A stretch of DNA of 62,317 bases, the filler included, from Hausera hauseri (Eukaryota): assembly GCA_046269625.1 (NCBI GenBank). It is 11 parts of 11 records of this genome, joined end to end, with 100 filler letters (N's around TTAATTAATTAA, not from the genome) between each part and the next. Parts side by side here need not be neighbours in the genome. Positions count along the whole stretch, not along the records: positions 13,727 to 22,206 come from JBJURY010629885.1; 10 more parts are not named here. One strand, written 5' to 3'. This document shows, one piece after another, positions 5,951-33,199 of the stretch; positions within the stretch are counted from its first letter, which is position 1; each line of letters starts with the position of its first letter. A program made the position numbers and the translations under genes. The notes beneath the pieces are model-generated. The model did not search any database and was not told the DNA's origin. It saw only the letters and a list, made by a program, of their open reading frames with translations.

Positions 5951-5951
5951 A

Positions 5952-6051: not shown

Positions 6052-6107
6052 CGAAGGAAGTAGGTACCAATTTCTTTGTTGTTTGTTTGCCTAATTTGCT
6101 TTCTTAG

Positions 6108-6278: not shown

Positions 6279-7479
6279 GTAATTGAATTTGTTTTCGTTT
6301 GGTGTAGTTTTAGTTAGGTTGGTAATTTTTGTCTAAATGACTTCATAGATTGGGGCAATGTACTGTAGTTTGGTTAATTTGTGTTGTGTTTTATTGCTAC
6401 TTAAACATCAGATTTTCTCAAGTTTTCTTTGGATTATTTTTGGGTCTCTTATCAGACATTATATATGATTATTATTCGAATGGACCAATGTTTTTTGTAT
6501 TCCGATAATGAGAATAAAGTTGTAGTTCATGTCAGCGACTATTTTTTTGACTATCGTTCGTGTACGTTATTTTTATGATAATAGAAATATTACATTATTC
6601 TTATCACTTGCGCTGTGTTTCGTTTGTGTCGTTTTTCACTCTCCCTCTGACTGACTAATTGACTCAGTCATTCACAGTCATTTTGAGTTAGCTGTATCAA
6701 TAAGAATTTCTTTAATGAAATTACGTATGAAAATGAGGTGTTTTTACCATTTACACCGTTTGGTGGGATTTGTTTTCAACATTTCTGCTCTCCACCTCTC
6801 GTTTGTATGCATATTTTCACAATCGGCCAGTGGTTTATTTGAATAAGACTGATCAGCTTGATCGTTTACAACAGTTTTTAATGTGGATTTCTGTTTTCTA
6901 TCTAATATTGAATATACCCAGAGTTTGATCTCTTATCGCTGTTTATAATCATATCAAGTTGGCAGCAATGCGTATTATTGTTAGTAAACTATTTTCTATT
7001 ATACGTATTACAATTATTGATCTGTCTATGATTTTATATGAAATTTATGAATAACTAGATTAGTATTTTATTAAATGTCCAGTTTATTTTCATGAATTTA
7101 TTGAGGATTATCATCCATTATTTGTGATTATCTGCAAATGTGGATTAAACAGTTGCCCACGCATGAGGTGATTTTTCAACAAATTCATGCATCTAACCAG
7201 TATTTGGATCAATGATGTATTTGTTATGGAACAAATAGTATCCTTTTGTGCTTTCTGCATACATTAGAATAACGGAACGAATATTCTATGTATCACTTGT
7301 CGCCGATGATGTAAGTTGATGCTGAAGATTGTTTTTTTATTCTCTTTGGGTGCATAGTTCTGACTGTTCGTTTTTATGGTTTGACATGGTGAGATAGACT
7401 CAGTCACGCATGCTTTATCCAATAATTCTTTTTAGAAGTTTAGAGAAATATCGCCTGATCAGTATCTCCTTTGCGCATC

Positions 7480-10400: not shown

Positions 10401-12624
10401 GTTTTCCGAATCAGTCAATCACATGATGTGACGAGAAAGTGTGATGATTTCACCTCTTTCTATGTTGGTTGTGTTGAGAGTTTCAACAAGTTAGGGTATT
10501 GCGCTTGCAGCAATGGTTCGATGTCAATGGGGTTTCCGATTTTTATACCTGTGACGGCGTTTATAGTTAGCGTGACTGATGTTAGAGGCAATGGATTTCT
10601 CCCGCTAGTGGGTTGTTGATTTCGGCAATCAACTGAGATTGCAGTGATCTAGGAAGTCAGAATCTAGGATTGGTTACATGACATCGGCCAATATGAATGA
10701 CCAAGCGTATGGTTGGCCTTTCAGATGAATATGTAAGTACAGTGTACCTGTGGTTGCTATTCGCGTGCCCTTGGCAGCTTTGAGCGATGCATACGAAGCC
10801 AACGTAAGTCTAGCGTGTTCGCTATGTATCAGCGATAAAGCTGCACCTGGGTCGATTAGAAAATCGAGTTGTTTCGAAATGTCAGAGTGTAATGGCTTAG
10901 CCTCGAGAGTCAAAATAGCATCGACAATGCGTTCGCTATTTGTATATGGCAGTTGTGATGATTGGGTTTCCAGTCGACGTGTCCTTGGTCGTCTGGGCCT
11001 ATTTAGTTTGCAGCCGGGTCAGCAGATTTTTTCATCTGGACCGAAATGATTGTGTCTTGCATTTTTATATTTGTGGATGGCTTGTCGAATTGACAACCAT
11101 GGTAATATTTTTAGGAAGATTCTCCAAATCGTGTGTGAAAATAACAAATTTAGGACAATTTGCCTTTCTTTCTCTTTGGGATTGGCGCCGAAATGACGGT
11201 TTGTCTCTGGCTGGAAGATTCTTGTGAGTTACAAGTGCCTGCAGTGCGGCAATGATCATGTCCAGATGACTTTGCTGGGTCGCTGTGACGGAGTTAATGT
11301 TTTCCGTTAGTGCGGATTCTACGGTGCCTTTAGTGCACTGGTATATTTAGTCGGCTTTCGATGCCATATTCTCCAATGTTGTGTCGGGCCGTAATAGCAC
11401 AAGGGCCGCTTGAATTTGGTTTGTCAAACTACTCAGGAAGTAGCGCCGTAGTATGTGCTGGTTGCTGTGGAGGTCCAACTCAGAATTGTTGAGGTCTGAG
11501 CGTAACTTTTGAAGCAGAGCAGAAGGTTTCAAATTCCCTGTCTGTCGCTTGGTGAAAACCAAGTTGAACTAGTCTTGTTGGAATGGCAGATACACTTTTT
11601 ATGCGGCTGCTTTGATTTTGTCAAACGGCTTTTCATCTGACAGTAACGTGTCCAGATTTGTTATTTCTGTGAGCCTTGTTGGCTGCAAGTATTGTATTAA
11701 TGTTAAGGCTTTGTTTAGTCGGCCGGTAATGCTGCATTGAGTGGTCCATGTTTCAAACACATGGAACCACTTCAATGGAGTTCCGTCCGAACTTATAAAG
11801 AAGGTGGGACAAGCTAATTTGGGTGGTTTAGCCGGTGATGCTAAAGCAGTTTCTACTTTTTTGTCGGGCGTATGGGTGTCAACGCCTCCTTTTAGTTTTG
11901 GAGTCACCAGTATAATGTTATTTTCTGCCAAAATTGTATAGCCTGTGCAATTATTTTTGCGTAACAATTTCCCATTATGAGAAAATATATGCTCGGGATA
12001 TCGTTGGTTTAAAACTTCCAGCATTCCCGACATATCTAGAGTGGATGGAAAGCGATGAGCTTTTGTATGACACCAATTTTGTACAATGAGTTGTACTTTG
12101 TTTGGCGTACTATCGGCCGGTGTTGTTTCACAATAGGGAATTTGGTTGACGAGTTCAGTCGACTAACGATTGGGTGAATGGTTAAATGGCGACTTTTCGC
12201 TTGTGTGTGATATTTTGTCGCGGTTAGTATAATCGTGTTTGTATTTCGATTTGACGGTGTTGACGCATGTGTTAGTGCTAGAATATTTTGGCACTTGTTC
12301 AATGTCACGCGTTGTAATTTTTTGATTGCAGTTGATTTTGTTGATAAAACTGTCAGTGGGTATTACATGATCATGTTTGGTGATGCACAAATGTGTGACC
12401 GGATTAGATTCCACGGCACTTGTGTCAATTTGAGCCTGACTGCTATCAACGGTTGTGAGCAATGTCTGAGCCGGATTTATTTCAACAGCTGCGTTTGTGT
12501 TATAAGGCATGAATGCGGTAACCGCTGCCACCACTTTCGAGTTCTTAGTCTTGCGGATGGAACTTTTTGATAAAAAACGGAAAAGTATGTAAATGCAGTC
12601 GAATAAAACGACGGAAACAGGCAC
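7480..12624 (-). mobile_element. Gypsy (CsRn1-like) family B internal region: N-terminal extension, UBL, gag, protease, RT, RNase H, integrase (degenerate)
   Basis: FLIDPGA protease, PCGDYR, MPFGLRNAGQTFQ, YIDDIL, TDAS, RELLAI, integrase core ~8400-8830; possible PPT GGAAGAGTAG near 7480-7490. Confidence 0.85.
11884..12096 (-). CDS. Ubiquitin-like domain preceding family B Gag
   Basis: Open frame VQLIVQNWCHTKAHRFPSTLDMSGMLEVLNQRYPEHIFSHNGKLLRKNNCTGYTILAENNIILVTPKLKGG (71 aa). Confidence 0.75.
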
Positions 12625-12919
12625 TGATAAGACGAGAAAACAATGATAGTAATTTTTATTAAATTATCGCAAATCGTCCGCCGAGGCGTACGAGTCCTCG
12701 GTTGAGGAGAGGGCCGAATTTATTTTCGGACTAGAATTAATTGATGTTGGTTCACGTCTTGTCGGTTCTAGCCGGCGTCGACGGCGCCGTATTGGGATTT
12801 CGCTGGGCTGGAGCTCACTGTCCTAGTCTGCCGCTTGTCGTCGATTCGACGGTCAGGAATCAACTGGCTCTCCGATGGAACCAGCAACTCTAATAGGCGA
12901 TCTGCAGCCGCCATCAGTC

Positions 12920-13513
12920 TCATGAATACCGGTAGGAAAATCGACGAGTCGAAAAGTCGTCGATTTTCCCGTCGTCGTAGAACCGGTTGAGCGTTCCCAC
13001 AGGTAAGGAGTAAGGATCATCTCGTCCCAACCTGGCTAGGTGCCGTATGAAACGGCTCCGTTGCAGCAGCTTCCGTATTTCCAGAAAATCCGAATAAAAT
13101 CGGTATGGGGCTTGCTTGTCGGTGTTGCGGCGTTGTCTTCCGCGGGAAACGGTATCTCTTCGGGTCAGGCACGGCTGTTCTGGCTGGAGGATCGAGACTT
13201 GATTGTCATCTGGGTACTGTATTCTCGCCCGTTTTGGTTGGGATCGCTTAGGGATCCGGTGCTCCGATGTCAAATTGATAACTTTGTTTAGTTCAACTTC
13301 AAAATTGGCTTCAGGTTTCGATACGATTGCCGTTCCTTGTTTTCGGGTGATTGGTTCACCAGTTTTGGGCTTGGTGGGAGGCAGCATAGGCACAATTGAC
13401 TTCTGCGTCGTCTGGCCCTTTCCGACTGTTTTCGATGTTTCTGGCATGTTTTTCATTGTTCGAGTTTGTTTTTCTGTTTCTAACTCTTTGTATATATTTT
13501 TGACTAAAATCAA
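12920..13513 (-). CDS. Unknown 197-aa ORF upstream of family B gag
   Basis: Open frame with a low-complexity N-terminus and basic C-terminal region; no family recognised. Confidence 0.35.
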   Translation of the reverse strand: MILVKNIYKELETEKQTRTMKNMPETSKTVGKGQTTQKSIVPMLPPTKPKTGEPITRKQGTAIVSKPEANFEVELNKVINLTSEHRIPKRSQPKRARIQYPDDNQVSILQPEQPCLTRRDTVSRGRQRRNTDKQAPYRFYSDFLEIRKLLQRSRFIRHLARLGRDDPYSLPVGTLNRFYDDGKIDDFSTRRFSYRYS

Positions 13514-13726
13514 CTGGTTTTAAGCTGTGGATTTAAATAAATGAATTTAAATCCACAGATTTTTGTTGTTGATCACAAAGTGCTGGTCACTTCGGCACTT
13601 GTGATTCTCCTCTTTTGATTTTGCTANNNNNNNNNNNNNNNNNNNNNNNNNNNNNNNNNNNNNNNNNNNNTTAATTAATTAANNNNNNNNNNNNNNNNNN
13701 NNNNNNNNNNNNNNNNNNNNNNNNNN

Positions 13727-14170
13727 ACAATTTGGTTGGAACATACAAAGTATAAATCTGGTGATGTAGTTAACGTTACACCAAAGATTCCAATGTACAT
13801 ACCAGTATTTTCATCAAGTATAAACAATATTGAAGTGAATATTCGTTCTGATAACGGCAATATCATAGATTTCGGATTTGATGCAAAGTCGTTGTTAACT
13901 TTACATTTTCAAAGAAAATGACTCAAAGTGAAATAATAGATTTGTATAGCCGACCACAACATGGTGGAGACTTACCATACTTTGTTGGGCGACAGTATGG
14001 TGGTAATTGGAAGGAGACATTGGGTAGAAATAACATTAATGTTGGGTAGAAAATTTGGTTTTCCAGTAGCTAAAAGTATAGGTTCAACTGTGGTGAAAGT
14101 TGCAAAGGACGACTATGAAAGACAATGAGGAATTCTTTTCAGACACTGGATCAAGGGCACTTGACGGTAG
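13727..14170 (+). mobile_element. Polinton/Maverick fragment: minor capsid C-terminus and core-protein-like ORF
   Basis: PMYIPV.SSSINNIEVNIRSDNG..LTLHFQRK then YSRPQHGGDLPYFVGRQYGG; homologous to 42860-43200. Confidence 0.8.
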
Positions 14171-14333
14171 ACTGGTTGTACGTTGAGATTGAAGGCGCAA
14201 TTTTTCACTGTTTGCTACGATGATATTTGATTCGTAAACATAAAATGTGCTACTAAATCTGCAGATGAAATCCGAACATAAACGTCGGGCCAATTTTGTC
14301 GAAAAAATTATTTTAAAATTCTTTCGAAGCGGA

Positions 14334-14432
14334 AGATCGGAGTTCCGCCTATGGGCCCGATGCGGCAGCAAGGGACGCCCGGCCGTGCCCGACCAAATGG
14401 GCCAAAGGGGATTGGCCGCCGCGGACGCCACA
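14334..14432 (-). repeat. Start of the 3' LTR of copy A3, preceded by PPT GGGGGTGG (14433-14440)
   Basis: The PPT is followed directly by TGTGGCG; ~100 bp homologous to 4434-4529. Confidence 0.75.
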
Positions 14433-17400
14433 CCACCCCCGTGGCAAAGTGAAGACTATAAAGATTAAAACAAACGGGACAAAGAAACAAGCGCTAAACT
14501 AAAAATTGTCTGTGTCAGTCGGTCTTAGTGTGGACAAGACTTTGGGTGCCTTCTAGTGATTTTTCCATGCTATACTTGCTGAATGTTACTCTGCGTGTTT
14601 TGTCTTTATGCGGTGTGTTTGCTTGTAGAGTTTGAAGTTGGGGAAAATATTGTCGGATTTTGTTGTGAGTGTTGTGATGTGCGAAGACCAGTCAAAATGA
14701 AGAGAAGAAGAAGGTGAAGGAGGAAGCGAGATTGTTGAAGACGGATGATTAAGGGTATTCAAGATAGTGTTAGAAGACGAAGGAATGGTAAAATGTGTAG
14801 TGGCGGATAAAGGAAGAGAGAAAATGTTAAAGTAGAAGTTAAAATTGGACTGGGTAAAAGAGTGGAAGTGGAAGATGAAATAGAGTTTGTGGTAGAGAGA
14901 GAGGAAGAGAGATAGGTATAGAAGTAAAGAGAGGAGAAAGTTGCGAAGCGGAAATGAAATGGGTAAAAGACGATGTGTGAGGAGAAATGGGGAAAAAAAG
15001 CACCGAAGATGAGGAAGGTGTGGAGGAAGAAAGAGAGAGAAAACACGACGAGGAGGGACAAAGCGGAAGAGAGCAAGAAGATGGAGAAGGCGAAGGAAAG
15101 TAGTTGGAAGGTGGTATGCAAAAGGTTGGAATGATGAACGGGGTAGATAAAGAGATTGGTGAAGTCGAAGTGATGTCTGGCGGAAGAGGTGTTGTAAAAG
15201 GAAAAATAAAGTTGTCACCAGGGGATGAAGTAGGTGTGCGACGGCTTGAAGGTGCAAAATCGGATGGGGAAAAGAGCCTGAGCTGTCGGAAGAAATTGAA
15301 GTAGAAGTCTTGTGAGAAAATGTAGGGGAAAATGGGTTAAAGAATTGAGCAGAAATGGAAGGTGAATTGTTGGATTTCTGCACGTCGTGTAAAGATGTTA
15401 GTGGAGAAGTGGTTTCGATGGGAGACCTGTCGTCAATGAAGAAAGCAGGTTAAGCGTTGTTGATGTGGACTGTTACTTCTTTGTCGTTCTTGAGAGTGAT
15501 GATATTGTGAGAGTGTAAACGAATTACTTTGTAAGGGCCAACATACTGAAGTTGAAAGCCACACGGCATCTGATTCCTTAACCCTACGAACTTGGCAGTA
15601 TATAAATCGTCGGGTATGTAAAGTTTATTTCCGTGTAATAGTCTACAAAATGAGTCTGCTGATCTCAATGATATGTCGCTGTGCCGCTTGTATGGTTTCA
15701 TCTGAAGGAATATTGTCCAGATCAGTCACCTACCAAATAATGCTTCTGCAGGCGAACAGCCTGTATAAGTAGATGGTGTGTTCCGCCATCCAAGCAGAAC
15801 GTACGGAAGGAGTGTAGTCAAACTGCGATTAGACTCAGCAGGGATTTTGAGAGACATTTTCACCGTTTGGTGAAAGTGTTCAAGAAGGCCATTCAATTGA
15901 GGATAATATGGTGACATGTGAATGTGGTTAATTCCTAATCGATTGATAAGAGCTTTAAACATGTTGGATTCGAACTGCGGACCTTGGTCCGAAATGATGT
16001 GGCGATGTGATCTAAACCTGCTGATCAAAGTGCGGATGAAAACGACTGCGATTGTTTCTGTGTTGGTGCTCCGAAACGGGACAGGCTCTGGCCATAGCGA
16101 GGAACGGTCAATCATTGTGAGGATGAACTGATGGCTGTTATCTAAGGGTAGTGGGCCTACAAGGTCAATGTGAACAGATTCAAAACGAGACGTGCATGGC
16201 AAATGATATAGTGGTGGATTTAAGTGCTTAGTAACTTTGTATTTTTGGCATGTCACACACTGCCTAACCAATGCCTGCACGTCGGAGCGCATAGACGGCC
16301 ATATTACTTGGCGTTGTAAGAGTCGAAAAGTGGCCTTGACACCGAGATGATGCAACGAATGAATGCTCTTCAATGATTCTTTTTGAAGCGATTCAGAAAG
16401 GATGACTTTAGGATTTTTGGGTTTGGAGGTATCAAAGGCCACACCATCGATGGTTTTGCACGATTTAAAAGATTTAATGATATCTGGAGGTGGCTGGTTT
16501 TGTTGACATTTGGACTGAGGGAAAACTGGTCTAAAATCAATCGAGATGATGGATCGGGACAAAAAGTCAGCTACTAAATTGTCCACTCCGTTTAGGTGCT
16601 TAATTTCAAAACTAAATGTGGACAAATACGATATTTGCCTCTACTGAAGTGAAAAGGCGATTTCATGGTGAGAATTTGGAGCAAGGGCTTGTGGTCCGTT
16701 TGTATTGTAAAAGTTCGTACAGTTAGTACATGTTTAAAGTGTTTTACGGCAAGGACCATTGTAAGCAACTCTCGGTCAAAGGTGAAACATCTTTGCTCTT
16801 GTGCCGTGAATTTTCGAGGGAAGAATTCTAATGGCTCACGGGATCCATTTCTGACTTGATGGAGGACAGCACCTGCAGCTGTTGTGGATGCATCCTTGGT
16901 TAAGAAGAATTCTGCATGGGAGTATGGATAGGCTAGGATTTCCACGGTTTTAGATTATATTTAAGGTGATCGAAAGCTTTGACTGGCTTGGCGGTCCACT
17001 GAATAAGCTGTTTTTTCTTACCAGAGCTTAGTGATGCAAATGGAGCCGTTAGAGTGGAGCAGTGTGGAACATACTTATGAATAAAGTGCAAGGTTCCGAG
17101 GAAAGAACGCATCTCTGTTGATGTACGTGGTAGCTGTATGTTTTTAAGATGTGTGATGAGCTCTGGCTGAGGTGAATATCCGGAGGAGCTAATAACATGT
17201 CCTAGGAAGTTGACCTTATGCTGAAAAAAGAGCATTTGGAGAAATTAATTTGCAAGTTGTTTTAGTGCAAACGCTGGAAGATTAAACGTAAGTGCTCGGA
17301 TTGTTGTTTCGAGGAATATTATGCAATTAGGATATTATCGATATAGGGATAAGCAAAGTCTAAACCTGAAAGAACTGTATCAACATGCCTTTGGAAGGTC

Positions 17401-20015
17401 TGGGAAGCGCTTCGGAGTCCAAAAGGCATGAAAAGGTATTCGAAAAGGCCGAAAGGTGTAATGACAGCCGTTTTCAGAAAGTCTGCTGGGGCCACCGGAA
17501 TTTGGTGGTATGCTTTGTGCAAATCAAATCAGGAAAAGATGGTCGAACATGGAGCCTGTGAAGGATATCGTTGATTAATGGTAGAGGATAGGCATCTATT
17601 GATGTTGTGATGTTGAGTTGGCGGTAATGAGCGCATGGGCAAAAGGTACTATCTTTTTTGGAACTTCATGTAGTGGTGAAGACCAAGGGGATTTGGATCT
17701 TCTGATTATCCAGTTCGAAAAACTCAGCCTCCACTACCTGTCTGCGGCAAGACGATAGCGGGTGGACCTTTTGACTTATTAATCTTTGATGTGCTGTTAC
17801 TATGTGATGGAAGGTGGATTTAGGTGGTACGAATGATTTGCCCTTTTGCAACAGACATGTGCAGGAAGACGAAATATATTGCTGTAAGTCAGAGGGCAAC
17901 GATGAAAAGTTTTCAGATGGTGTCGGTGCATCGTGGCTGGCTGCAGTTGAGGTATGAGTTGTAGACGAAGTATTGTGACAAGGTGGTATTAGGTGCAGGA
18001 TGTTTGTATTGAAGATGGTGTTGACAGCTGTATTATCAGTAATAGGTGCCACGCAGTTGGTAATATCGTATTTGTTGCCGTAATAAAAATTTCTATATAA
18101 AGAATGATTATAAAAATAATTTAAATCAAAAGTCGTTTTCTTTAGTATTGACTTGATAGAAGCGATCACCCGGGTGGTCACCAAAATGCTGCTAATTTAA
18201 TTAAAATTATTTCCGATCTTTAAGGAACATCGTTTGTAGTCTACAAGTAAATTGTAGTGGGACAGAAAGTCTAAACCCAATATAGGCGTGCATACATTGG
18301 CTACTGTAAATTTCCAAGTGAATATATTTGGGAAATTTGGAAGGGTAAAAGTTAATTTAGTAACACCAAAAGTTTGTAAAGGTTTACCGGACGCAGTGAA
18401 CAGTTCCTTTTTTGAAGTGAAATTGTTTTGAATGTGCTGTGTTGGTGGTAATAAAGAGATTGCTGCGCCGGTGTCTACGAGAAAATTAATGTTTTGCTTT
18501 GTTGGAGTGACGACTGCTGCTTCCAACGTAAATACAGCAAAAGAAATGTGTCGGCTATCTTTTTTTAGGTTATTGCCTTTGCTAGAATTTGCCGTGTGTC
18601 CTAGCGGAAAAATCAGTTTTTTGTATCTGGTGAGTTTGGCCTACTACTTTGTGTGGGTTTAATAGTGTTGATTTTATTGTGCGCATTGTAGTTACAGCCA
18701 GGTAGGCATTTTTGTGCTTTTGTTCCAAATTTTGCGTAATAGAAGCAAACGATGTTGCTTGTATTAAAATCAGGGGAGTAAAATTTACAACCGATGCAGC
18801 ATTTCTAAGCATTGTTACCAAATTTGTCGTGATAGTAACAAATAGGCGACCGCGCGAGCGAAGGCGACCGTCTTTGTCGTTGATGAAATACATTAAGTGA
18901 AGCAGCCCTAGAAAAACCTTGTCGAGGCAGCGTTAACTCATTTAATTTCTCGTTTATTTCATTTATTGTTTTTTGAAAAATTTTGTTTTCTGAGCGTAAT
19001 TGCCCAATTTGTTGCTGCAGCAATATATTTTGTTATTGGTGGTTTATTGTTAATGTCGCAGAGACAGTTCGTGCAGTGTGTGAGTGCAGCACTTCATGGG
19101 CTTTGTCCGCCAGTTCGGCTAGCTTTTCCAGTGCCGTGGAGTGTTCGACCACAGTCAGCAAAGCTCTTATTTGAAGGGACAATGCATTTAAAAAGTAACG
19201 ACGAAGTTCTGGACAATGGTCAGATGTTACACCAAGGGTATTTAGGTGAGACAAAGATATGCGCAAGAATTGAGAAGACTTCTGTAGGCCCATGGCGTTG
19301 TCATTGTAAAACCTTTTAATGATACAGTCGATTGACGGATCAGTGAGCTTAAGAACGGCATTATAAAGTTGAGCATATAAATCGGTGTGGTGAAGGATTT
19401 CGATGATGTTTGTAATTTTAGTTTTGATAGAAACAGGTAAATAAAAAAACAGGCTGTTGACTTTGGATAAGGGGTCGACAAAGTTTTGTGATTGGAGTTA
19501 GAATTTATGCAGTTTTAACCATGTTTGGGTAGAATTTTGGCTGTCGAAGAAGTATTCTGTGCAAAGTGAATGAGTGGGGAGTGTGTGCTGTGTCGGAGTG
19601 TTTGAAGCATTTTGTTTTTGTAGGTAAGTGATGGAGATCGGTGGTTTGGTGGGTTTGTCCGTGGTATCAGTATTGGGTGATGAATCCATGCCACCACGGA
19701 TGCGAGTGTATGTGAAGGTAGATATAGGATGAAGAAAATTGTAGGGTTCCAGCGATGGGTATTGTAGAGCCATTGTGTGTGATATGAAAGTTAGATGACT
19801 GAAAAAGAGTGAAGATAATGTTGTAGATGGCCGCAGTGTTTAGGTGTGTTAGTGCATTTGTGCAAATGTTTATTATTTGAGAAAAAAGGAAATGCAGAGG
19901 TCGCGCGGCTGGGGGCGTGTCGCGGGGCGGCAACAAACGGTGCCGTCTGACCCAATGGTGTAAGGTGGGCGACCGGGGCTTCAGCCTCGCCGCGGCGGGT
20001 CTCAAAATGCGGGGT
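14433..20015 (-). mobile_element. Gypsy family A copy A3, full internal region (leader, UBL-gag, PR, RT, RH, IN, low-complexity tail), degenerate
   Basis: CHCC boxes, [59 protein letters not shown] motif. Confidence 0.92.
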
Positions 20016-20049
20016 AGCCGAGTTCTCTATGTAATATTTCTCCGTTGGT

Positions 20050-20110
20050 CACTCTGGCCCACTGATTTGTGCCGTATTTTATTATGGCTGATGTAAGAAC
20101 TTCATCCTCA
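20050..20110 (-). pseudogene. CDC5L: CDC5L Myb repeat 1 fragment
   Basis: EDEVLTSAIIKYGTNQWARV versus canonical [20 protein letters not shown]; short match. Confidence 0.7.
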
Positions 20111-20154
20111 ATATATCTAGGCACCTTATTGGGCTCATTAGAATTGATACCGGT

Positions 20155-20910
20155 TTTGTTCAAAGTGCTCAAAAGTGTGATTAGCTTTTTTGATTTGCAT
20201 ATTCGCATAAATTTATGTGATACATTCGGAATCAAATTGTGCATATTTTCGCTTTTAACAGTGGAAAATATATCCGTCGGAACAATATCACCACATGCTT
20301 CGGTGACCTGTTTGGTAATCGTTGGGTTGCAAATAATTAACTGACTGACAATCGGTTCCTTATTAACTGGACGAGATGTCTGTATAGATGTTTTAGCCAA
20401 AATGTCCGATACGACACTTTTCAAACTCATCAATTTTATATCACCTAATAATGTGGCTTTTAATAACAGACGGAGGCGATACTATAAAATCGCATGGAAC
20501 AAGATCTTTCGGGTTATTTAATATAACGCTGTTCAGATTCAAACTACGGCCGAAACTAATTATGACATTATTCGGTTGGTTGCAGAGATTCCACGTTGGC
20601 GCAATAACAATAGGCTTTGGGGTACTTTCGTTCGTGGGTAAAGACGACTCGTTACACATTTTATTCATCAGCAGTAAAGTAAATGCTAATGTTTTGTCGC
20701 CACGTGTTTCATCGCAGATAATCGTGTTACATTCGTGCAAAATGACGCGAACACTTAAGATCTGAATATTCATAGGTTTCACATATATATATCGGTAGTA
20801 AGTGCCTTTCAATTTCCATTGACAGCTCCAAATAGGAAAAACTGATTTTTGGCGGTTGCCACGCAGATGATTTATTTGTTGTATTAATAGTGAAATGGTT
20901 ACCGTCGGAC
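20155..20910 (-). pseudogene. DDX28: DEAD-box helicase fragment, DDX28-like
   Basis: GNHFTIN..SFSYLEL, Q-motif KPMNIQ, degenerate Walker A ETRGDKTLAF, IAPTWNLCNQ, MHNLIPNVSHKFMRI. Confidence 0.7.
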
Positions 20911-21960
20911 TCAACAGTCAAACAGAATGGTGTGTTGTTAGTCTGCAATTCAACTGTAGAAAATTGATTCGACAATTTCAACTCACTGCCTTGATATTTC
21001 TGGATGTAGAACTTGTAGAACAATCTGAAACTACTGAGCAAGTCCGGAAACAAATTGAATTCCACCGGGTTAGAATTTATAGGCCAAGACCAATTTGTCA
21101 GTACCATAAACTGACTGGTAAAGGACATCACGATATCGGGATTCTGAATAAGATAATCGGAGAAGGATGTGTTCAACTGGGATATGAGTTGAATGTCATT
21201 GAATATCCGTTGGAACGGACCGGTATATTCAAGACCGCACACACTTTTAATTTGGTTGATGACATTTTCCTAGTTCTTCATCACCAGATTCTGGCTATAA
21301 ATGAGCCGTTTACACAAAGATCACTGGTAGTGTTTCTGAAATGCGTCCTTATCCTCAATGTACTTGAAGAGGATGATGAAATTGTTTATGTCCTTCTCGA
21401 ATTCTTGATCGTTAAGAGATTTGGCCTGCTTCTTCAGAAGATTATCAACGTGCCTGTTTAACAAATCCGCTGGTTTAGGTATCTTCGGTCTAAATAATAT
21501 TATGTTGCTGCTAATGACCATACAACAGACGTCGATAAATAGGGCGTTTCAGCCGATACTGAAGAATCTGTCTGGTCCATTGATTGTTCAGAAAATGACT
21601 CTGATTTACTAATGGACGCCGTCACATTACGAAGAGAATTAATCTCCTGTTTTTCATTTATGGCCTTGGTGAATGCTTTATCGATGGCATTTCTGAATTG
21701 AGTATCTTCGTCGAAAATCTCTCTGTTGAAATCATAGAAACGATTTCTGGCATTTGTCAATTCTGATACAAACAGATTGTGAGCACTCTAATAACATTAG
21801 ATGCGTTCAATAGGGCAAAATAAATTTCAGTCATGCAAATGTTTCGCATACATGTTAAACATACATTTATATTGGTTAATGTCACAAATATATTCGAACT
21901 TCTTTCTGCATCAGGGAATATTCGTTCACTGCCATAAAGGAGCAGGAATGGTCACCAAAT
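20910..21960 (-). pseudogene. CUL2: Cullin (CUL2-like) internal fragment
   Basis: AIDKAFTKAIN, LL.RHVDNLLKK, ILFKYIEDKDAFQKHY, CGLEYT..QRIFNDI, FY..KYQG. Confidence 0.85.
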
Positions 21961-22754
21961 ATTTATAAATTATTAATATTATTATTATTTGCACGTCTCT
22001 CTGATCATTCGCAATGAAAACTTTGAAAGTGCTGCCCACATACATCTTCTGGACAACAGTAGAATCAGATCATTCTTCACTAACTTGTAAAATTAGAGTA
22101 CATATTCACGGGGAAATACATATGAAAATAATCCACAATTTGATAGTTTTATTATACAGTATGTTTCATAAAAAAGCTGTCACCATGTTTGAAGGTTTAA
22201 TTAGAANNNNNNNNNNNNNNNNNNNNNNNNNNNNNNNNNNNNNNNNNNNNTTAATTAATTAANNNNNNNNNNNNNNNNNNNNNNNNNNNNNNNNNNNNNN
22301 NNNNNNAACGTTTGACAAAAGTATTATCTCGCCGATAGTCTATAAATAGATAATGCGCAGTTTGACCTTCACCGAACACCCTCCTTTCAAACGGTTCCTG
22401 TAGTCCACCATTTATTTGTAAAATCCGAGTTTTGTCGGCTTCCTCTCAATAACGATACCATGTAAATCCCGTGATAACTCGTTTCCGTTTGTCCGTTGAT
22501 ATGGATATAAACGTTCAAAGAATTTTTGCGGAAATCGCAGAAATAATCGGTACACCCGTTATAAAACATCACAGATTCATTGAGTGATGTTCAAGACTAA
22601 AAGTGCCATCGGGACATTTAAAATACCGAGAAGATAGAAAATTTACGTGATAGATAAACAGATTATCAAATACATTAATTTAATTACTCCAATTTACAAC
22701 AATGAGTAATTTAATAATTACGATCTATAAACGACATTTCAATCCCAACTACCT

Positions 22755-23260
22755 TTATAGAAGAATCCTCTGATCCTGTAGCCACTAAGTGCCCACTTGA
22801 ATTAAATGCAGCTGCTCGGCATGCACCTTTATGAGCTGTCAGATAAAATGTCTCATAATGTGCTGCATCGGGTGCATTTGGAATATCTGGTGGAATTGAA
22901 TGAAAAATTAAAGAAAATCATATTATACATTCATTTTCCGTATCGAGATCTATTGACGTTCCTTGAGGAATGGTTTCAAAATCCTTCGTTGGACCGCGCT
23001 CGAAATCATCTGAGGTAAATAAATTTATTTGATGGTTTCAATAATATTACCATCGGAGATCGAAAGGCCAAGTTGAGTTAATTTCAATAAGCGATTTGAT
23101 GGACCACATGTTGTTGGAGGATTATGAATACTGATAAGGCTCTGAGCAACATTGTGGTAACCATCAAACAAAAGTTGACTAAATAAATTTAACAAGATAT
23201 TTATATTATACAGCAACACCTTATCATTAATCGATACAATAAATCTCGATCTTTGTACAT
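22755..23260 (-). CDS. CSTF1: Cleavage stimulation factor 50-kDa subunit, 5' exons with ~40-nt introns
   Basis: MYKDRDLLYRLMIS/QLLFDGYHNVAQSL..PSNRLLKL..YETFYLTAHKGACRAAAFNSSGHLVATGSEDSSIK; GT-AG introns; no lesions seen in these exons. Confidence 0.88.
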
Positions 23261-24974
23261 ATTTCGCGAAATTTTAAAAGATCTCAAAGTAATAGAATAT
23301 TTAAACAAAAAAAACTTATCAAGTCACAATTTAAATTTAAAATACTATATCTACTTGTATACAGTGTGTATCTAAATTAACACCCAAAAGAAAATAAAAG
23401 ATTTAAATTTCCGGACATGTTTAAATTAGTGCAGTAGCATTAACAACTTTGTTGAGAAATAATACAGCTCATTTAATACTGCATATAATTCGCATCGCTT
23501 CTCATGAGCAAACTAAATCATCTACAAAATCAAATTTAACCATATTTACTTATTTTGAATATGTTTAACTCTAATATTTAATATAGGAAAGCTTATAAAT
23601 GAAAACTAAGAAATGCTTGTAAAAGTTTTGGAAATTATGGTTTTTAAATAAATTTCCATATAACATAAATAAATTTCCTCTCTCCATGATGTGACCAACA
23701 TGCATCGTGTCCCTCGTCTCATTCTTGCTGGGTGCAGCAGGGAGTTTGTTTTAGCCCAGTTGGCCAGATAGCCGGACCCGATGTTACCCTTCGTTTTTGT
23801 CTTGCCAGTAGTTGCAAAAGGACTGGTAAAAGCCGGCCCCTCATATTTTCAAAAAATTTTGAAAAACCGATTTATACCAGCCCTTTTATAACTACTCTCG
23901 ACACTTCAGTTTTAAAAATATACAATAAAAATGGATAACCCGCAACCACTGATTTTAAATCTTCCTATATCACAGGTCAGGAAATGAATAAATTAATAAA
24001 TGGCAATAATAAAATTTTTGTAACATTTCCAAACAAATCTGAAGGAATAATTTCTTGCGACAATCTACCTGTGAGGAGGAATTGAAAGGAATACTCAATA
24101 AATAAATATAATTTAATAAACAGCCAACAGAATGTTAGCAAATTCAGCAAAGAAGGAAAATAAGACTCATTTCCGGAATGGAGGAGATAATTGTTCTATA
24201 TACTTTTATAATAAATCTTTTATGGATAATTCTATCTTACAATCATCGAGTGACGTTGAGGTTAAGATGGTAGAAACGCGATCTACTAACAATGCCAACA
24301 AGTTACGGTTGCTTGTAAAGCTTAAACATTCACCGGTATTCGTTTCAACTTAAGCCTCTACTTTTGTTGAAACATCCAACTTCTATAATTATAAAAATAT
24401 TTTATGCATAGGCAATATGGCTTCATGATTGTGTACCATTGGTAAATATACTTGTACATGAATAATATTGTTTGTACATCAGTAATCATGATTTTATGCA
24501 AACACACGGATTGTAAACAATTATGCAAAAACATCTATGTCACTTGAATGAGCATTGAATTTTAACACATAAATATTTTCCCCTGCCGTCAAATTGACGG
24601 AATCGCATAGTTAATCTTGATAGTGTTTTGAATCATATTAAATCATTTGGCTTAAAAATACAGAAACGATCAAAAGTATAACTGAAATAAATATAGGTAT
24701 TGATTTCCAATGTACTATGTATAAATAAAAATAATTTGTCGACGTCGGGCTTTTCACACCAACTAAAATAATGAAATTAGAGCGATAGGATGATAATGTA
24801 AATTTGAAAAATCCAATCTTATAACAATAAAAAGAGTTAAAACAAACAAAATCATATTTAGATAATTTGACAGCACACATAAAAATAACGTTTCGCATCA
24901 TATATGTCATTTTTATTTCACATAATTTTAATCTAAATAAGTTAACAACTATGGAACAAGAAGAAGAACAACAA

Positions 24975-26673: not shown

Positions 26674-29110
26674 NGTGCAAATCAGTGCAGGAAAAAATTG
26701 TCGAACCATGGAGCCTGTGAAGGATATTGTTGATTAATGGTAGAGAGTAGGCATTCATTGTTATGATGTTGAGTTGGCGGTAATTACCGAATGGGCAAAA
26801 GATACCATATTTTTTAGAACCATATGCAGTGGTAAAGGCCACGGAAATTTGGATCTTCTAATTATTCCTAATTTTTCCAGTTCGAGAAACTCAGCCTCCA
26901 CTGCTTGTCGCCAGCGAGGCGATAGCGGGCTATCCTTTTGACGTATTGGTCTTTGATATGCTGTTACTATGTGATGGAAGGTGGATTTAAGTGGTACGAA
27001 TGATTTGCCCTTTTGCAATAGACGCGTTTAGGAAGACGAAATATATTGCTGTAAGTCAGAGGGCAACGATGAGAGGTTTTCCGATGGTGTCGATGCATCG
27101 TGACTGGATGCAGTTGAGGTATGAGTTGTAGACGAGGTGTTGTGATTAGGTGGTATTAGGTGTAGGATGCTCATTTTGAAGATGGTGTTGGCAGCTGTAC
27201 TATCAGTAATAGGTGCCACGCAGTTGGCAATATCGTATTTGTTGCCGTAATGAAAATTTCTATATAATGAATAATTATAAAAATAATTTAAATCGGAAGT
27301 TGTTTTCTTTAGTATTGACTTGCTGGAATCGATCGCCCTGGTAGTCACCGAAATGCTGCTAATTTGATTAAAATTGTATCCGCTCTTTAAGGAACATCAT
27401 TTCCAGTCTACAAGTAAACTCTAGTGTGACAGAAATCTGAACCCAATATAGTTGTGCGTACATTGGCTACTGTAAATTTTTAAGTGAATGTGTTTGGGAA
27501 ATTTGGAAGTGTAAAAGTTAATTTAGTAACACCAAGAGTTTCTAAAGGTTCACCGGACGCAGTGTACAGTTGCTTTTTGAAGTAAAATTGTTTTGGATGT
27601 ACTGTGTTGGTGGTAGTAAAGAGATTGCTGCGCCGATGTCTATGAGAAAATTAATGTTGATCTTTTTGTAGGTTGCTGCTTTTTCTAGAACTTTCCATGT
27701 GTCCTAGTGGCGAAATCAGTTCTTTGTAGCTGGTGCGTTTGGCCTACTATTTTATGTGGATTTAGTAGTATTGATTTTATTGTGTGTGTTGTAGTTGCAG
27801 CCAGGTAGGCATTTTTGTGCTTTTGTTCCAAATTTTGCGTGTATTAAAATCGGAGGAGTAAAATTTAAAACCGTTGCAGCGTTTCTGAACATTGTTACCA
27901 AATTTGTCGTGATAGTAACAAATAGATGACCTCGCGGGCAAAAGCGACCGTCTTTGTCGTTGATGAATTCCATTAGGGGAAGCAGCTCTAGAAAAATCTC
28001 GTCGAGACCGTTAACTCATTTAATTTCTTGTTTGTTATTAATTGTTCTTTGTGAAATTTCATTTCGTCTGAGCGTAATTGCACAATTTGTTGCTGCAGCA
28101 ATGCAATTTTTTGTTGGTGGTTTGTTGTTAATGCCGCAGAGACAGTTGGAGCTGTGTGTGAATGCTGCACTTCATAAGATTTGTCTGCCAGTTCGGCTAA
28201 CTTTTCCGGTGCCATGGATTCCTCGACCACAGTGAGCAAAGCTCTTATTTAAGGAGGCAATGCATTTAATAAGTAACGACGAAGAGGTTCTGAACTATGC
28301 TCAGATGTTACGCCAAGGGTATTGAGGTGAGACAAAGATGTGCGCAAGAATTCAGAAGGCTTCTGAAGGCCCATGGCGTTGTCATTAAAAAACCTTTGAA
28401 TGGTAGAGTCGATGTACGGCTCAGTGAGCTTAAGAACGGCATTATAAAGTTGAGCATATGGATCGGTGTGGTGAAGGATGTCGATGATGTTTGTAATTTT
28501 GGTTTTGATAGAAGCAGTTAATGAAAAAACAGGCTGTTGGCTTTGGATAAGGGGTCGACGACGTTTTGTGATTGGAGCCAGAATTGATGCAGTTTTAGCC
28601 ATGTTTGGGTAGAATTTTGGCTATCGAGGAAGTATTCTGTGCAGGTTGAATGAGTGGGGAGTGTATGCTGTGTCTGAGTGTTTGAAGCACTTTGTTTGGG
28701 TAGGTAAGTGATGGAGAACGGTGGTTTGGTGAGTTTCTCCGTGGTATCAATAGTGGGTGATGAATCTATGCCACCACGGATGCGGAAGTGTATGTGAAGG
28801 CAGATATAAAATGAAGAAGATGGTAGGGTTCCAACGAGAGGTACCATGGATACGTGGTATGTGAAGTAAAAGTCAGGTGAGCGAAGAAAAGTGGAGATGA
28901 TGTTGTAGATGGCCGCAGTGTCTAAGTTTGTTACTGTGTTTGTACAAATATGTTGATTATTTAAAAAAACGAAAAGGAGATATAGAGAGGTCTTGTAGCT
29001 GGGGGCGTGTCGCAGGGTTGCGGCGAACGATGCAGTTTGACCCAATGGTATAGGGTGGGCGGACGGGGCTTCCGCCTTGCCGCGCCGAATCATAAACTTT
29101 GGGATGACCG
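26674..29110 (-). mobile_element. Gypsy family A copy A4: leader, UBL-gag, protease, RT start (degenerate)
   Basis: Colinear with 17520-20015; CLHIHFRIRGG|IDSSP. Confidence 0.9.
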
Positions 29111-29365
29111 AATTCCCCTCATGCAATGTTACTTCTTCACTACTTTTACTTTGTGCGTATTTTGCCATATTGCCCATTTTAGAACCGTTTTTCAGATTGG
29201 GCGAGGACTTCCTTGATTGTTGCTTGCGTGGGGCGAATAACTCCTTGCCTCTGAGTAGCGTTTGTTTGTCAGCCATCCAAGGTAATGATGCCTTCAGTAG
29301 GGTAAATACTTTGATGAGAGCAATATCGATCATATCGTTAGCATCCTTATTAAGGGCTACATGGA

Positions 29366-30115
29366 TTATGAGCGACGTTTTTTATGGGTTATTTCTAATG
29401 TGTATAAACCGATGTCAACAATGCGGTCCTTTGTTAATCCATCAGGCATATGTGCATTCCTGCCGTATACTTCAACATATCTCGGAACATTACGGAGCTC
29501 AGTAGAATTGATACCAATGCGTATACTAACAATTACTGAGTCCGGTCGCCTGTTGCTACTGGCCAATGATACTGGGTTTTTGCAAACAACTGCAATACTC
29601 TGTTCCTGATTAGCCGTGCGACTATTAAGTACATCCTGTAAGTACAATTCCAACAGCCGATCTGTACTGAGCGCAACGTAGTTCGTCTGTTCACAGTACT
29701 TAAAAAAATCAAAGGGAATATGATCATATGATGGGTCATCAAGAAAAATGATATCTTGAGTCTTGTGTTGTTTTTGTTGACCCGCAATGCTTGTTGTTGG
29801 ACCATCCGTAATAAGTTTAAACAAAATTGCGCAATCCAAACAATGATATAAATATGAATTTCTGAATGAGTCGCGTAGCCAGTACAACCCATTAGAAATA
29901 GCGACCATAGATGCTGTAGCAGTGAGACTACCTCCGTCATTCATTATGCGCCGTGAAAAGGTGATAGCAGCCGTAACTTTGGTGAGACTGGCTACCGATG
30001 TGGCACACATATCCAGTGATACTGGCCTAGCACCACCGTGCCTCTCCGCTACCCAATAGGCAAATCCGTCAGACCCAACAGCCAAGCAGAATAGAGTGTT
30101 GTTATATGCGCACAC
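29366..30115 (-). CDS. Unknown 249-aa ORF at the 5' LTR position of A4
   Basis: Uninterrupted ORF, sense to the element; shares a 46-bp segment with the A3 upstream region. Confidence 0.4.
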   Translation of the reverse strand: MCAYNNTLFCLAVGSDGFAYWVAERHGGARPVSLDMCATSVASLTKVTAAITFSRRIMNDGGSLTATASMVAISNGLYWLRDSFRNSYLYHCLDCAILFKLITDGPTTSIAGQQKQHKTQDIIFLDDPSYDHIPFDFFKYCEQTNYVALSTDRLLELYLQDVLNSRTANQEQSIAVVCKNPVSLASSNRRPDSVIVSIRIGINSTELRNVPRYVEVYGRNAHMPDGLTKDRIVDIGLYTLEITHKKRRS

Positions 30116-30160
30116 AGGCCGATAGTAAACCTGGTAGGGAGGGAACAGATGCCCACCCGG

Positions 30161-30874
30161 TTAAAGCCAACGGAGAGCGGCCACCAGCGTACCGAGAAAG
30201 CAGCCGGTATCGACGTACAGAACATCAGCACCCGTTTGCAAAAAGGGGTAGAATGTATATTTGTTATTATTATTATTAGAATTTCCAAAATTTGAAACGG
30301 ATGGAAATAAGAGCATTATCTTTGTGGGAATATGCATATCCGAAAGGTACAAATTTTTCTGACACCATTTATTATTTCGTCTAGTTCTGCATAAATTTGC
30401 TGCGGGTATGATTTTCTCATTGATTTTAAAATCGGTCATTTGAGGAATGTAAACCTGTAGAGCACTGTCGCCTTGTGCTTTACTACTTTTCTTTTGGTGA
30501 AAAGATTCTATTTTTCGAGGATCTGAAGGGTTGAGACTGACCGAAAGTGTGCGATTATGTCCAAATGAAAATAATTTGACTTCAACGTCAATTAACGACT
30601 GTATTGGCACGTATAAATATTTGTCACGAGTTAATTCATGTAAACATCGATCACCATAATATTTTTCGTCACATCTTAGAAAACACTTTGGGTCGGATAC
30701 GTTGTACAATGGCTTAATACGCAATTCCGTGTCTTCTACTGTCATATTTGGTCGTTCGCCCGGCAGAATAACGATACTATCCGTTATGTGTAATGATTTT
30801 CGACGCTCTTGGGCAATATATTCGTCTGCTTCGTTTATCTTTCGATTTACGTGCATTTGGGAATTATCAGACAA
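30161..30874 (-). CDS. Unknown 237-aa ORF at the 5' LTR position of A4
   Basis: Uninterrupted ORF in AT-rich DNA, sense to the element. Confidence 0.4.
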   Translation of the reverse strand: MSDNSQMHVNRKINEADEYIAQERRKSLHITDSIVILPGERPNMTVEDTELRIKPLYNVSDPKCFLRCDEKYYGDRCLHELTRDKYLYVPIQSLIDVEVKLFSFGHNRTLSVSLNPSDPRKIESFHQKKSSKAQGDSALQVYIPQMTDFKINEKIIPAANLCRTRRNNKWCQKNLYLSDMHIPTKIMLLFPSVSNFGNSNNNNNKYTFYPFLQTGADVLYVDTGCFLGTLVAALRWL

Positions 30875-33199
30875 AATTACTGTTTATCGACACTTTGTAC
30901 AGGGTTTCATAAAATGAATTAATTCAATAAAGCTTGACCGAATTCTGATAATAAAAAAACAAATTCTTCGCAAATATATGGTAATAAAAGTCAAATTAAA
31001 ATTGTCGAATCTTCAAAATTGAGAAATACAATGTAAGTAGAGAATGTAGTATGGCGCTAANNNNNNNNNNNNNNNNNNNNNNNNNNNNNNNNNNNNNNNN
31101 NNNNTTAATTAATTAANNNNNNNNNNNNNNNNNNNNNNNNNNNNNNNNNNNNNNNNNNNNTAAAACAAAGAAATCTTAAATATTTAAAATATGCATAAAA
31201 ATGGAACCTTCTGTCAATATTGCAAGTTTAGGAATTATATTTATTATAGATTAAAATTTGATATTTAATTTTGAACATTTTGCTTATCCTATTAAGTAGT
31301 GGAAAATGGGCACTTTTACATAAACCCATACCTTCATCCTCTTAATTAAAATGATTTAATAAAACAAAATGTGTGACAGATAGGTGATTTGGAATTAGTA
31401 CATATTTCTTACCCCCTGCTATCTTGCGTGCCTTAATGGCTATTGGCAATTGATTTGGTTTGCGACATAATTCTATTCTGGTACTATACATCTGGTATAT
31501 GAGAGTGTGGAGGGAACACGAATTCGGGGGTGAATGTATCTGTCTACCGTGAGTCCAAGGGAGGTAGGGTAAAATAAATTACCTGCATCCGAGCGATTTC
31601 TTTGTCCTGGCACCTAGAGCTAGAATCTTCTGAGGTGTTGGGATTCTTTAATTGAAAACTTACCTTAATTGAGACCCCTTATTTGACTAATAACACTAAC
31701 TATTTGACTGATAATAATTTTACTAACAACAATAACAATAAGTTTGTATGTACTTTTTATGGACATTTAATCATGTAAATTAAACCCTGTTTGTCCTTCT
31801 CTGTTTTCATGTAGCACTTCTGATGGGTATCATATTCAACAACCTGTGTTTTGTATGTGTGATGTGAGCCTAACGACGATTTGGACGGATCCATAGAAAG
31901 AGAACAATTTGAAACGTAAGAAATGAATAATAGACATTAAATTTATAGGCCAAAATAAGGTCAGAAAGAATTTAATAAATGAATAGTGAACAACCTAGTG
32001 TACGAACGACTGAACAGAAGGTATTCTGAAAAGCATTTTGAAATGAATCACAATATGATTCTAACAATAGATAAACTTCTGAAAAGCATTTTTAAAGTGA
32101 ATCAATATGACTAGTAACAATTTTAACAATAGATTAACTCAAATAGCCTGTCGGCCATCAGTAAACTTAGAACAGATTCAAACAAATTTATTAATGCAAA
32201 CAGAAAATCGACGGCATAATTACAAAAAAATGGACAACAAAAACAGTATTTAAACACAACATACTAGTAAGTAAAGACGCTCACACTTATCTGACTACTC
32301 AAAGAGAATTTTTACAAAAACAGATACCTATTCTTGATTTACTAAGGAACCTTAAGGTAGGTTTCCAGAATCATTAGATTATAATTTGCTTATAATAGAC
32401 GATTATATTAAGCAGTACAAAGAACTCGACGCATACATTATCACTCGAAAATTCAATCCAATACCACACTAATAATCAGAGAAACTCGAAATCTATACTG
32501 ATAAATGGCCGAAAGAAATGAGAATAATTTGTCATACTCGAATTTGACACATGCAAATCATTTGGGTTAGCTATGTTGATTATTAGTCCATCGTCCTTCA
32601 TTTTATATTTGTTAATGTATTATTGTTATGAAATACATATTTGCACATAATAAATAATGGTTGAATGATGCGTAAGAACGATCAAAATGCGGGATGGCGA
32701 AAGAGGTTGTGTCCAACGAACAGGTTATATATATGGAAGGGACACAGATGTTCCTATGAAATGAACATAAAGGAGTTAGATCTCAGCGAAGTTGATTGTA
32801 TAAAATCGCCACGGGCTAGAAAATCAACGCCATGAGTCCGAGAAGGTCAAGCTTATCGATGAAGGAGCTCAGGTATTATCAATGACCTGATTATATTTTT
32901 CGATACCTAATTAAATCCTTCATCGGGTTGATCTATAAAGAGGTTTTCTGTTACCAGTCAATGATTCCGAATTAATGATTCCATTTTTGATTAATAATTT
33001 CTTTCTTCATTGATTTCATTGAAATATTATGTTAACGAAACCTTGAATAATGATTTTTATACTAATCTTTCGCAGATCTGATTAGCCAAAATTTTATTGT
33101 ATACCAATGATTCCGGTTATGGATTTTGATTGTTATTTCCCTCTTTCCCAATGATTATTGTTGTAGATTCTGCATGGGTTTGGATTTGATGTGTCAGGA

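Follow-up and report, generated by a model that had tools for sequence, protein, structure and literature searches.

The 5′ LTR position of A3, a decayed retrotransposon copy in Hausera hauseri, is occupied by pieces of CUL2, DDX28 and CDC5L joined head to tail and sense to the element, with two short islands shared with the cargo of a sister copy at their joins. This cargo is multi-copy, and different cargos are joined at the same point in two sister copies. We consider it probable that the pieces were acquired when reverse transcriptase (RT) switched template onto co-packaged host mRNAs within the LTR, gag-pol being kept.

The window analysed, a stretch of 62,317 nucleotides, consists of 11 contigs separated by ten artificial linkers (each N44, 12 bases, N44). 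The contig carrying A3 covers positions 13727-22206, with the mosaic at its upper end; it stops at 22206, and the start of the A3 5′ LTR is outside the visible sequence. The host is probably a flatworm: the nearest named relatives of the cullin fragment are flatworm proteins (40-58% identity), and 5 of the 9 cullin clusters looked up bear neodermatan names, in databases that favour parasitic species. Protein searches did not find the parental proteins of the cargo, the best cullin being the one 40-58% identical, and no further loci of the mosaic were found in metagenome or viral contigs. A tRNA search of the window found none. Rfam gave no match at gathering level within the window, and one chance-level match in 13700-22200. 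A ribozyme or structured RNA at the GC-rich ends was considered and rejected, as Rfam gave nothing beyond this and folding z-scores ranged from -2.45 to +2.18 (1 of 8 notable).

The internal region of A3 (14441-19993, minus strand) comprises a leader, gag, protease, RT, RNase H, integrase with a GPY motif and a low-complexity tail, and is interrupted by stops and frameshifts. Pfam matches place the protease at 18200-18640 and the integrase at 15729-16640; the RT and RNase H/integrase stretches lie between them (motifs, tblastn), and the GPY motif lies within 15480-15620, beyond the integrase core. The order gag-protease-RT-RNase H-integrase is that of Ty3/Gypsy elements, and the relatives found for the integrase are unnamed or generically named. 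The CsRn1 clade is characterised by a gag CHCC motif, a GPY integrase motif and a Trp-type primer binding site (PBS) (PMC2582038), and by LTR termini TGTGGYG ... MSYYAMA (PMC3601003). The CHCC spacing, CX2HX9CX3C, is found in the A3 gag with a stop inside the motif, and was not found in the A4 or A2 copies. An LTR start TGTGGCG, exact to TGTGGYG, is present at 14432 and also at 4529 in copy A1, this 7-mer occurring 17 times in the window; at 14432 it is immediately preceded by a short, imperfect, G-rich purine tract, as a polypurine tract would be. At the other end, a putative LTR 3′ end and degenerate tRNA-Trp-type PBS occupy 19994-20014 (minus strand, CCCCGCA at 20014-20008). The LTR end agrees with MSYYAMA at 6 of 7 positions, by itself a weak indication, as each of the 5 windows scanned contained a 6/7 match. 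Filed by its motifs, A3 is a dead minus-strand CsRn1-type Ty3/Gypsy element. The PBS agrees with the published CsRn1 Trp PBS at 7/11 positions in A3, 7/11 in A1 and 6/11 in A4; its degeneracy in all three copies counts against the template switching explanation.

Two partial sister copies allowed the edge of the element to be located. Identity to A3 is 87.1% and 83.6% for A4 (26675-29115) and 76.8% for A1 (1-1008). Homology among A1, A3 and A4 ends at 1008, 20016 and 29103 respectively, and for the A3-A4 pair at 20041/29133, beside a 6/7 end-motif match and the 6-7/11 PBS match. The different cargos of the three copies are joined within about 30 nt of one common point. Between the LTR end and the A3 cargo proper lies a tail of about 27 nt (20015-20041, minus strand), weakly similar to A4 29133-29106 and common to these two copies. 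The C-over-G skew also distinguishes the two sides, with +0.34 in the A3 internal region and about 0 in the cargo.

All the A3 cargo is on the minus strand and, read in the sense of the element, runs CUL2, possibly a WW domain, DDX28 and CDC5L, with the degenerate PBS a few bases on. Pfam and PDB matches thereby confirmed the original prediction of three unrelated gene pieces placed head to tail. The most distal cargo (21913-22206) is AT-rich, without a named match (no Pfam match below E 0.03). It is followed by a decayed CUL2 fragment (20941-21912; Pfam Cullin, E 2e-20), whose start at 21912 is weak (6/300 shuffles) and which has suffered two stops in 21476-20941, three in 21868-21788 and one frameshift. 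A cullin HMM built from 47 of 67 full-length matches aligns over 21868-21635 and 21518-20931 (HMM positions 302-563 for 21868-20931). In a PDB search with the fragment alone, CUL1 came slightly above CUL2. The nearest full-length relative, P0003, falls in one cluster with P0151, a protein matching CUL2 at 469 bits and CUL1 at 275; we label the fragment CUL2 because this cluster member of its flatworm relative is clearly a CUL2.

Downstream of the cullin piece and island 1 (see below), about 50 nt (20850-20901) resemble a WW domain, a lead only (PDB Prp40 WW, E 0.082; Pfam WW_TCERG1, E 0.038). The DDX28 fragment, frameshifted and with an approximate left boundary, covers about residues 149-388 (20152-20849; Pfam DEAD, E 1.9e-6). 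It was matched in PDB in two frames (E 7.6e-4 and 1.7e-3), which cover residues 149-236 and 298-388, and in one search of this region the best match was another DEAD-box helicase, mt-LAF2 (E 4.9e-4). Finally, 20042-20107 encodes an N-terminal Myb piece of CDC5L (PDB residues 10-42, E 7e-5; Pfam Myb only E 0.09). The joins CUL2 to island 1, DDX28 to island 2 and island 2 to CDC5L are in phase, and ORFs do run continuously through the junctions, as had been proposed, over 20727-21269 and 20002-20481. Switching at similar codons may account for the in-phase joins. Nothing points to a fusion protein under selection in A3, whose pieces are now broken by stops and frameshifts, and the suggestion that exons were shuffled into a working protein is unsupported for this copy. 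No poly(A) run was found at the cargo joins. These are partial gene pieces, sense, devoid of poly(A) and fused to LTR-element sequence, as LTR-mediated retrocopies are.

Which kind of template was copied depends in part on introns. A 77-nt intron at 21864-21788 had been taken as a hint of pre-mRNA or DNA templates. We rejected it: the cullin HMM aligns straight through this segment, which is coding sequence with 3 stops. The anchors flanking it are 140 nt apart, compared to 150 nt in the homologue P0003, and therefore leave no room for an intron of that size. The idea of an unspliced template nevertheless survives through another segment, a 41-nt GT-AG intron kept in the CUL2 piece (21490-21530, minus strand). 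This pair is one of 11 frame-restoring GT-AG candidates, and a single contig of the public run X1 skips exactly these 41 nt, with the intervening sequence marked not known; a form of the mosaic lacking the intron may thus exist. In the native CSTF1 gene, on the next contig, two introns measure 41 and 42 nt and fall within about 350 nt. As the 41-nt intron was retained, one template was an incompletely spliced RNA or DNA. Elsewhere, 545 nt of the CUL2 piece align to the homologue without an intron-sized gap. Retention of this intron counts against the template switching explanation, as does the fact that the intron-skipping joint rests on a single contig.

The joins of the A3 mosaic contain sequence of another origin. 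The CUL2-DDX28 junction had been placed near 20910, but CUL2 ends near 20941, and the stretch read as 'NNTPFCLTVESDG' is a 39-nt island (island 1, 20902-20940, minus strand) in common with the A4 cargo, where it corresponds to 30104-30066 (33/39, 85%). Likewise, the supposed linker between DDX28 and CDC5L turned out to be mostly DDX28 (residues 298-388) plus a 44-nt island (island 2, 20108-20151, minus strand) corresponding to A4 29515-29472 (36/44, 82%). Both alignments are gap-free; strand, order and codon phase of the islands agree between A3 and A4, and the distance between them is 750 nt in the former copy and 550 nt in the latter. Blastn of A3 against the A4 cargo gave E 5e-6 for each island, and each scores 48 versus a maximum of 35 in 60 shuffles; in 11 other pair-and-strand cargo comparisons nothing went beyond shuffle level, the LTR start itself excepted. 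The A3 cargo is different from that of A1, as predicted, with no local match above shuffle level.

The 5′ cargo of A4 (29098-31060, minus strand) contains both island counterparts and a fragment of UBR4 (PDB, E 3.5e-4, ORF residues 130-246). Island 2 is inside the UBR4 match (ORF residues 216-230); island 1, though it belongs to the same 264-codon frame, lies beyond the part that matched. Searches of A4 29100-29381 and 30164-30883 yielded neither a UBR4 match nor another name. The 14 differences within the islands fall 3, 5 and 6 times on codon positions 1 to 3, as for neutral decay, and the islands have diverged to the same degree as the A3/A4 bodies (83.6% and 87.1% identical). Given this body-like identity and the position of the islands, at the CUL2 end and at the DDX28-CDC5L join, ancestral cargo was probably overwritten piecewise. 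The simplest reading of these sequences is that A3 and A4 would derive from a common ancestor with UBR4 cargo, later overwritten by out-and-back switches. Alternatively, the islands may have been picked up separately from UBR4 mRNA, which would need the same process.

We then asked how widespread the cargo is, using contigs of one public run, X1 (library type not on record), placed at 80% likeness. X1 contains the A3 stretch at 0.39 of sampled words. Summed contig depth, which is no copy number, was 5,700-55,000 over the A3 body, and fell to 328, 200, 138, 77, 59, 65 and 22 in successive cargo bins away from the element. All 30 bins were covered. Depth was lowest in the distal cargo, where one contig is identical over 21896-22206. 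Among the variants listed (40 of 1,035), contigs are stacked up to 23 deep at 20348, 11 at 20845 and 9 at 21204. No contig among those listed spans the whole A3 cargo; variants listed at 20093, 20129 and 20845 are 39-78 letters away from contig ends, an indirect sign that nearby joins are covered. One X1 joint, 20308-21648, might be a deleted copy of the mosaic, with a side of 26 letters that is below the caution limit. The many divergent DDX28 contigs and the steady fall in depth fit a cargo amplified with the element, with the fastest turnover at the distal end.

We conclude that the A3 cargo is multi-copy, not copy-specific. Of the proposed recurrent, copy-specific capture, recurrence at the 5′ LTR position stands, whereas copy-specificity does not, given X1 and the islands in A4. 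Recurrent capture from several genes is borne out by three copies with one joining point, by the remnants of older cargo, and by orientation: all 7 identified cargo pieces are sense (chance 1/128 were orientation random), and none of 38 antisense cargo ORFs has a Pfam match.

Copy A1 shows what precedes such cargo. Its inferred complete 5′ LTR (1000-4529, minus strand), about 3.5 kb (3,530 nt from the LTR-start block to the PBS), would consist of the LTR start, Rab8-type, kinase-like, SLBP and SARM1 pieces, and the LTR end with the PBS. The block at 4529-4432, upstream of the cargo, is homologous to the A3 3′ LTR start, with a score of 93 versus 32 for the best of 500 shuffles. Plus-strand pol homology, oppositely oriented, starts at 4537 and abuts this block, as expected at an insertion edge. 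That the block is a solo LTR was rejected, since the interrupted pol does not resume beyond it (by eye). The Rab8-type piece starts at its ATG and is unbroken for 117 Pfam positions from beside the LTR start. The kinase-like piece is a lead only, searches with 2822-3037 gave no usable match, and SARM1 similarity appears to run, frame shifted, into the LTR-end motif; like the in-phase joins of A3, this may hint at microsimilarity at the fusion points.

On the 3′ side of A3, the purine-rich tract and LTR start occupy 14277-14440 (minus strand), of which about 100 bp are clearly common with 4529-4432. Both LTR starts share GTTTATG near nt 150 and then continue into foreign sequence, a weak coincidence (215/5000 shuffles). 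In A3 this foreign sequence is a very high-copy segment (13727-14276, plus strand, antisense to A3), the deepest in X1, of which 13730-14028 has 50% amino-acid identity to window positions 42852-43175. Pfam gave it no label, and we take it to be Polinton/adintovirus-like. It may be LTR cargo, a later insertion or the target site; its antisense orientation, unlike the all-sense cargo, counts against the template switching explanation. The 706 nt visible on this side do not match the 2.2 kb of 5′ cargo of A3, contig breaks cutting both ends. For cargo in the LTR to be compatible with such a mismatch, the LTR would have to be longer than about 2.9 kb or to have been interrupted at a later time. 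We also considered a pair of short, diverged LTRs, as the post-PBS leader and the LTR start looked alike, but rejected it (42-436/500 shuffles). The window holds no element with both LTRs complete.

According to the explanation that we find probable, the family LTR would be conserved over its first 100-150 bp or so and over at most about 30 nt at its end, and pieces of host transcripts would make up the dispensable stretch in between. RT, beginning minus-strand synthesis at the PBS, would move through the LTR region, quit the element RNA for a co-packaged host RNA, copy part of it and come back, each round overwriting some of the older cargo. In the A3 line, CUL2, (WW)/DDX28 and CDC5L pieces would have replaced most of the UBR4 cargo, the 39-nt and 44-nt islands being what is left of it at the joins. 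With gag-pol untouched, cargo would be amplified along with the element, perhaps in both LTRs, as part of either U3 or R/U5. Cargo near the PBS would be overwritten least and be common to most copies. Only the integrase-bound ends would have to survive, so that cargo may reach almost to the PBS. RT switching to host RNA and back is described for LTR-mediated retrocopies (PMC5131818; review PMC5470649), and the former also provides a precedent for switching at microsimilarities and for multi-gene chimeras.

The main competing explanation, which we regard as unlikely, puts the cargo outside the duplicated LTR, at the 5′ end only. Strong-stop DNA would prime on cellular mRNAs, and the multi-gene cDNA so made would join the 5′ end of a pre-existing element, either by recombination or through 5′ transduction from an LTR lying upstream. 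Yeast Ty1 retrosequences do enter by recombination. A common breakpoint beside the PBS, a degenerate PBS, a 3′ LTR start of A3 that gives way to unrelated Polinton-like DNA and a 6/7 end-motif match at 14301 are all in keeping with such a 5′ chimera. What it accounts for poorly is the multi-copy gradient and the inheritance of islands by A3 and A4, which need repeated propagation of cargo with the element; the A3 3′ LTR and the A1 LTR start also seem to switch at the same motif near nt 150, within the weakness of that match.

Even less probable in our view is capture at the DNA level, whereby gap repair at breaks in the LTR would copy genomic gene segments that the element then amplifies. Gap-repair capture has been proposed for Pack-type DNA transposons. 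The intron retained in CUL2 would be explained, and out-and-back switching is possible in DNA repair too; against this, all seven pieces are sense, identified cargo is nearly all coding sequence, and intron-free stretches are long for a host in which the one native gene available (CSTF1) is interrupted by 41-42-nt introns. That the element merely inserted into, or deleted between, neighbouring genes or a pseudogene graveyard, the mosaic being a local deletion product, is very improbable: repeats are dense in this genome and the pieces have decayed, but a local deletion cannot bring A4 cargo pieces to the A3 joins, and the breakpoint shared by 3 of 3 copies and the many contigs stacked over DDX28 largely refute it. 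An assembly or library chimera, which the fragmented assembly with its artificial linkers, the limited share of sampled words in X1 and the lack of a spanning contig among those listed might suggest, is the least credible reading of all, as the islands differ by 15-18% from A4 and hence are not copies of the A4 contig, the joins keep codon phase, and X1 covers every bin and, by the indirect evidence of variants near the joins, apparently the joins themselves.

Capture of several genes by LTR elements (Tan et al., Bs1) and foreign retrotransposon sequence in an LTR (BARE-2) are already known. In the LTR-mediated retroposition described by Tan et al. (2016) in Drosophila, some of the internal ORF sequence gives way to the retrocopy, leaving a non-autonomous product (PMC5131818). 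The A3 cargo resembles it in its partial sense host-mRNA pieces, with at least two genes per chimera, amplified and often in frame, but A3 keeps gag to integrase, its cargo takes up the LTR position as far as the PBS-like site, and older cargo is overwritten in successive rounds. As in maize Bs1 and other plant LTR-captured genes (PMC5131818, PMC13317346, PMC3726574), fragments of three unlinked genes are found in one LTR retrotransposon; in Bs1, the cargo is flanked by the element and forms one chimeric gene, whereas here it is decayed and varies among sister lineages. The barley BARE-2 LTR chimera also owes foreign sequence in the LTR region to abnormal template switching, but from a single event with the retrotransposon Wis-2 as donor (PMC13317346), compared to many host-gene donors here. 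With the CsRn1 clade (PwRn1, AgCR; PMC2582038, PMC3601003) A3 shares CHCC, GPY and the PR-RT-RH-IN order, and perhaps the TGTGGYG start and a Trp-PBS remnant, while the LTRs of that clade (381 bp for PwRn1; about 330 bp as model training length) differ from the 3.5 kb, mostly host-derived, deduced for A1. Pxyfem of Plutella xylostella likewise involves LTR-element-linked, multi-copy partial host-gene cDNAs, with the particular feature of silencing RNAs against its parent gene (PMC9674220). Small-RNA effects of captured genes have precedents in PMC9674220 and PMC3726574. Trains of several host-gene fragments are also found in Helitrons and Pack-MULEs (PMC6431247), but these DNA transposons differ in their termini and enzymes, and nothing of the sort flanks the A3 cargo in the window. 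For LTR elements, the same review describes captured ORFs as lying downstream of pol or between the LTRs. Among the papers covered, few of them subscription ones, we found no animal Gypsy element that is coding-complete and has its LTR position filled by a kilobase-long host-mRNA patchwork with layered overwriting.

By capturing sequence in a dispensable LTR middle, an element could stay coding-complete while it goes on sampling and multiplying host exons, free of the cost of known LTR-mediated captures, most of which deprive the element of its coding region. The layered remnants and the copy-number gradient would form a datable record of successive template switches, so that a single genome could reveal the rate of switching, its need for microhomology and its frame bias. 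More tentatively, and on balance we doubt it, the LTR middle of the whole family may be a continuously overwritten record of the germ-line transcriptome. Hundreds of coding-complete elements would then bear, in each of their LTRs, kilobases of mRNA pieces from the host; these pieces, mostly fused in frame and transcribed with the element, could serve as a source of chimeric exons or of small RNAs directed against housekeeping genes. If this were true and the host a neodermatan, the record would be kept in a lineage reported to lack the Piwi pathway (PMC8191739). If transcribed, the cargo would place copies of essential genes (CUL2, CDC5L, DDX28, UBR4, Rab8) in transposon RNA, a possible silencing target. 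Captured cargo would also inflate the number of false paralogues in gene annotation.

The host-gene cargo of A1, a partial sister copy of the decayed Ty3/Gypsy copy A3, lies on the minus strand within 1000-4529 and is made of Rab8-type, kinase-like, SLBP and SARM1 pieces, the kinase-like assignment (Atlas 0.90) being a lead only. It also contains a stretch that gave no usable match (2822-3037, minus strand) and an N10 gap at 3187-3196. From 4530 to 5951, the RT-RNase H-integrase region of a related Gypsy element was found on the plus strand (64% to A3). This pol runs in the opposite orientation and is broken off at the A1 LTR start, which marks a nested insertion. A2, a decayed Gypsy element on the minus strand (6052-13626), is more distant than the other copies. 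No host-gene cargo was identified in A2, and a 199-codon ORF upstream of its gag (12920-13519) had no match in Pfam.

At the apparent boundary with foreign sequence in both LTR starts, of A3 and of A1, GTTTATG occurs on the minus strand (14283-14277 and 4383-4377, respectively). The same motif is found at the PBS position of A4, another partial sister copy, just after 29098, and 7 copies are present on the minus strand across the window. Inside the A3 3′ LTR region, a 7-mer resembling the end motif is followed by a PBS-like stretch (14301-14284, minus strand), which may be due to chance or be the remnant of a tandem element.

At position 20806, close to the frame change of the DDX28 piece in A3, most aligned contigs of the sequencing run X1 differ from A3 by a single base, which argues that the frameshift is probably decay private to A3. 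Depth of these contigs over the compared A3 region was highest at 13727-14009, a segment related to decayed genes located at 39462-44760, 47500-49200 and 50600-53650. We take the latter to be Polinton/adintovirus-like; DNA polymerase B2 matches (Pfam) fall within them at 51877-52711.

Other features include a native-looking start of the CSTF1 (CstF-50) gene (22307-23273, minus strand), with introns of 41 and 42 nt, a rhodopsin-family GPCR piece (56006-56542, plus strand, Pfam E 0.003) and a PiggyBac-type transposase piece (57866-58441, minus strand, Pfam DDE_Tnp_1_7, E 2.5e-13). ORFs at 54000-55392 (minus strand), which resemble a parvovirus/densovirus-type capsid, gave no meaningful match in Pfam. 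Two similar GC-rich motifs are spaced by ∼510 bp (36539-36580 and 37049-37090); the minus strand of the first resembles a PBS of another LTR family. Contigs are separated by an artificial linker, N44-TTAATTAATTAA-N44, at 5952-6051 and nine similar places, and the contigs flanking a linker in the window are unrelated sequences.
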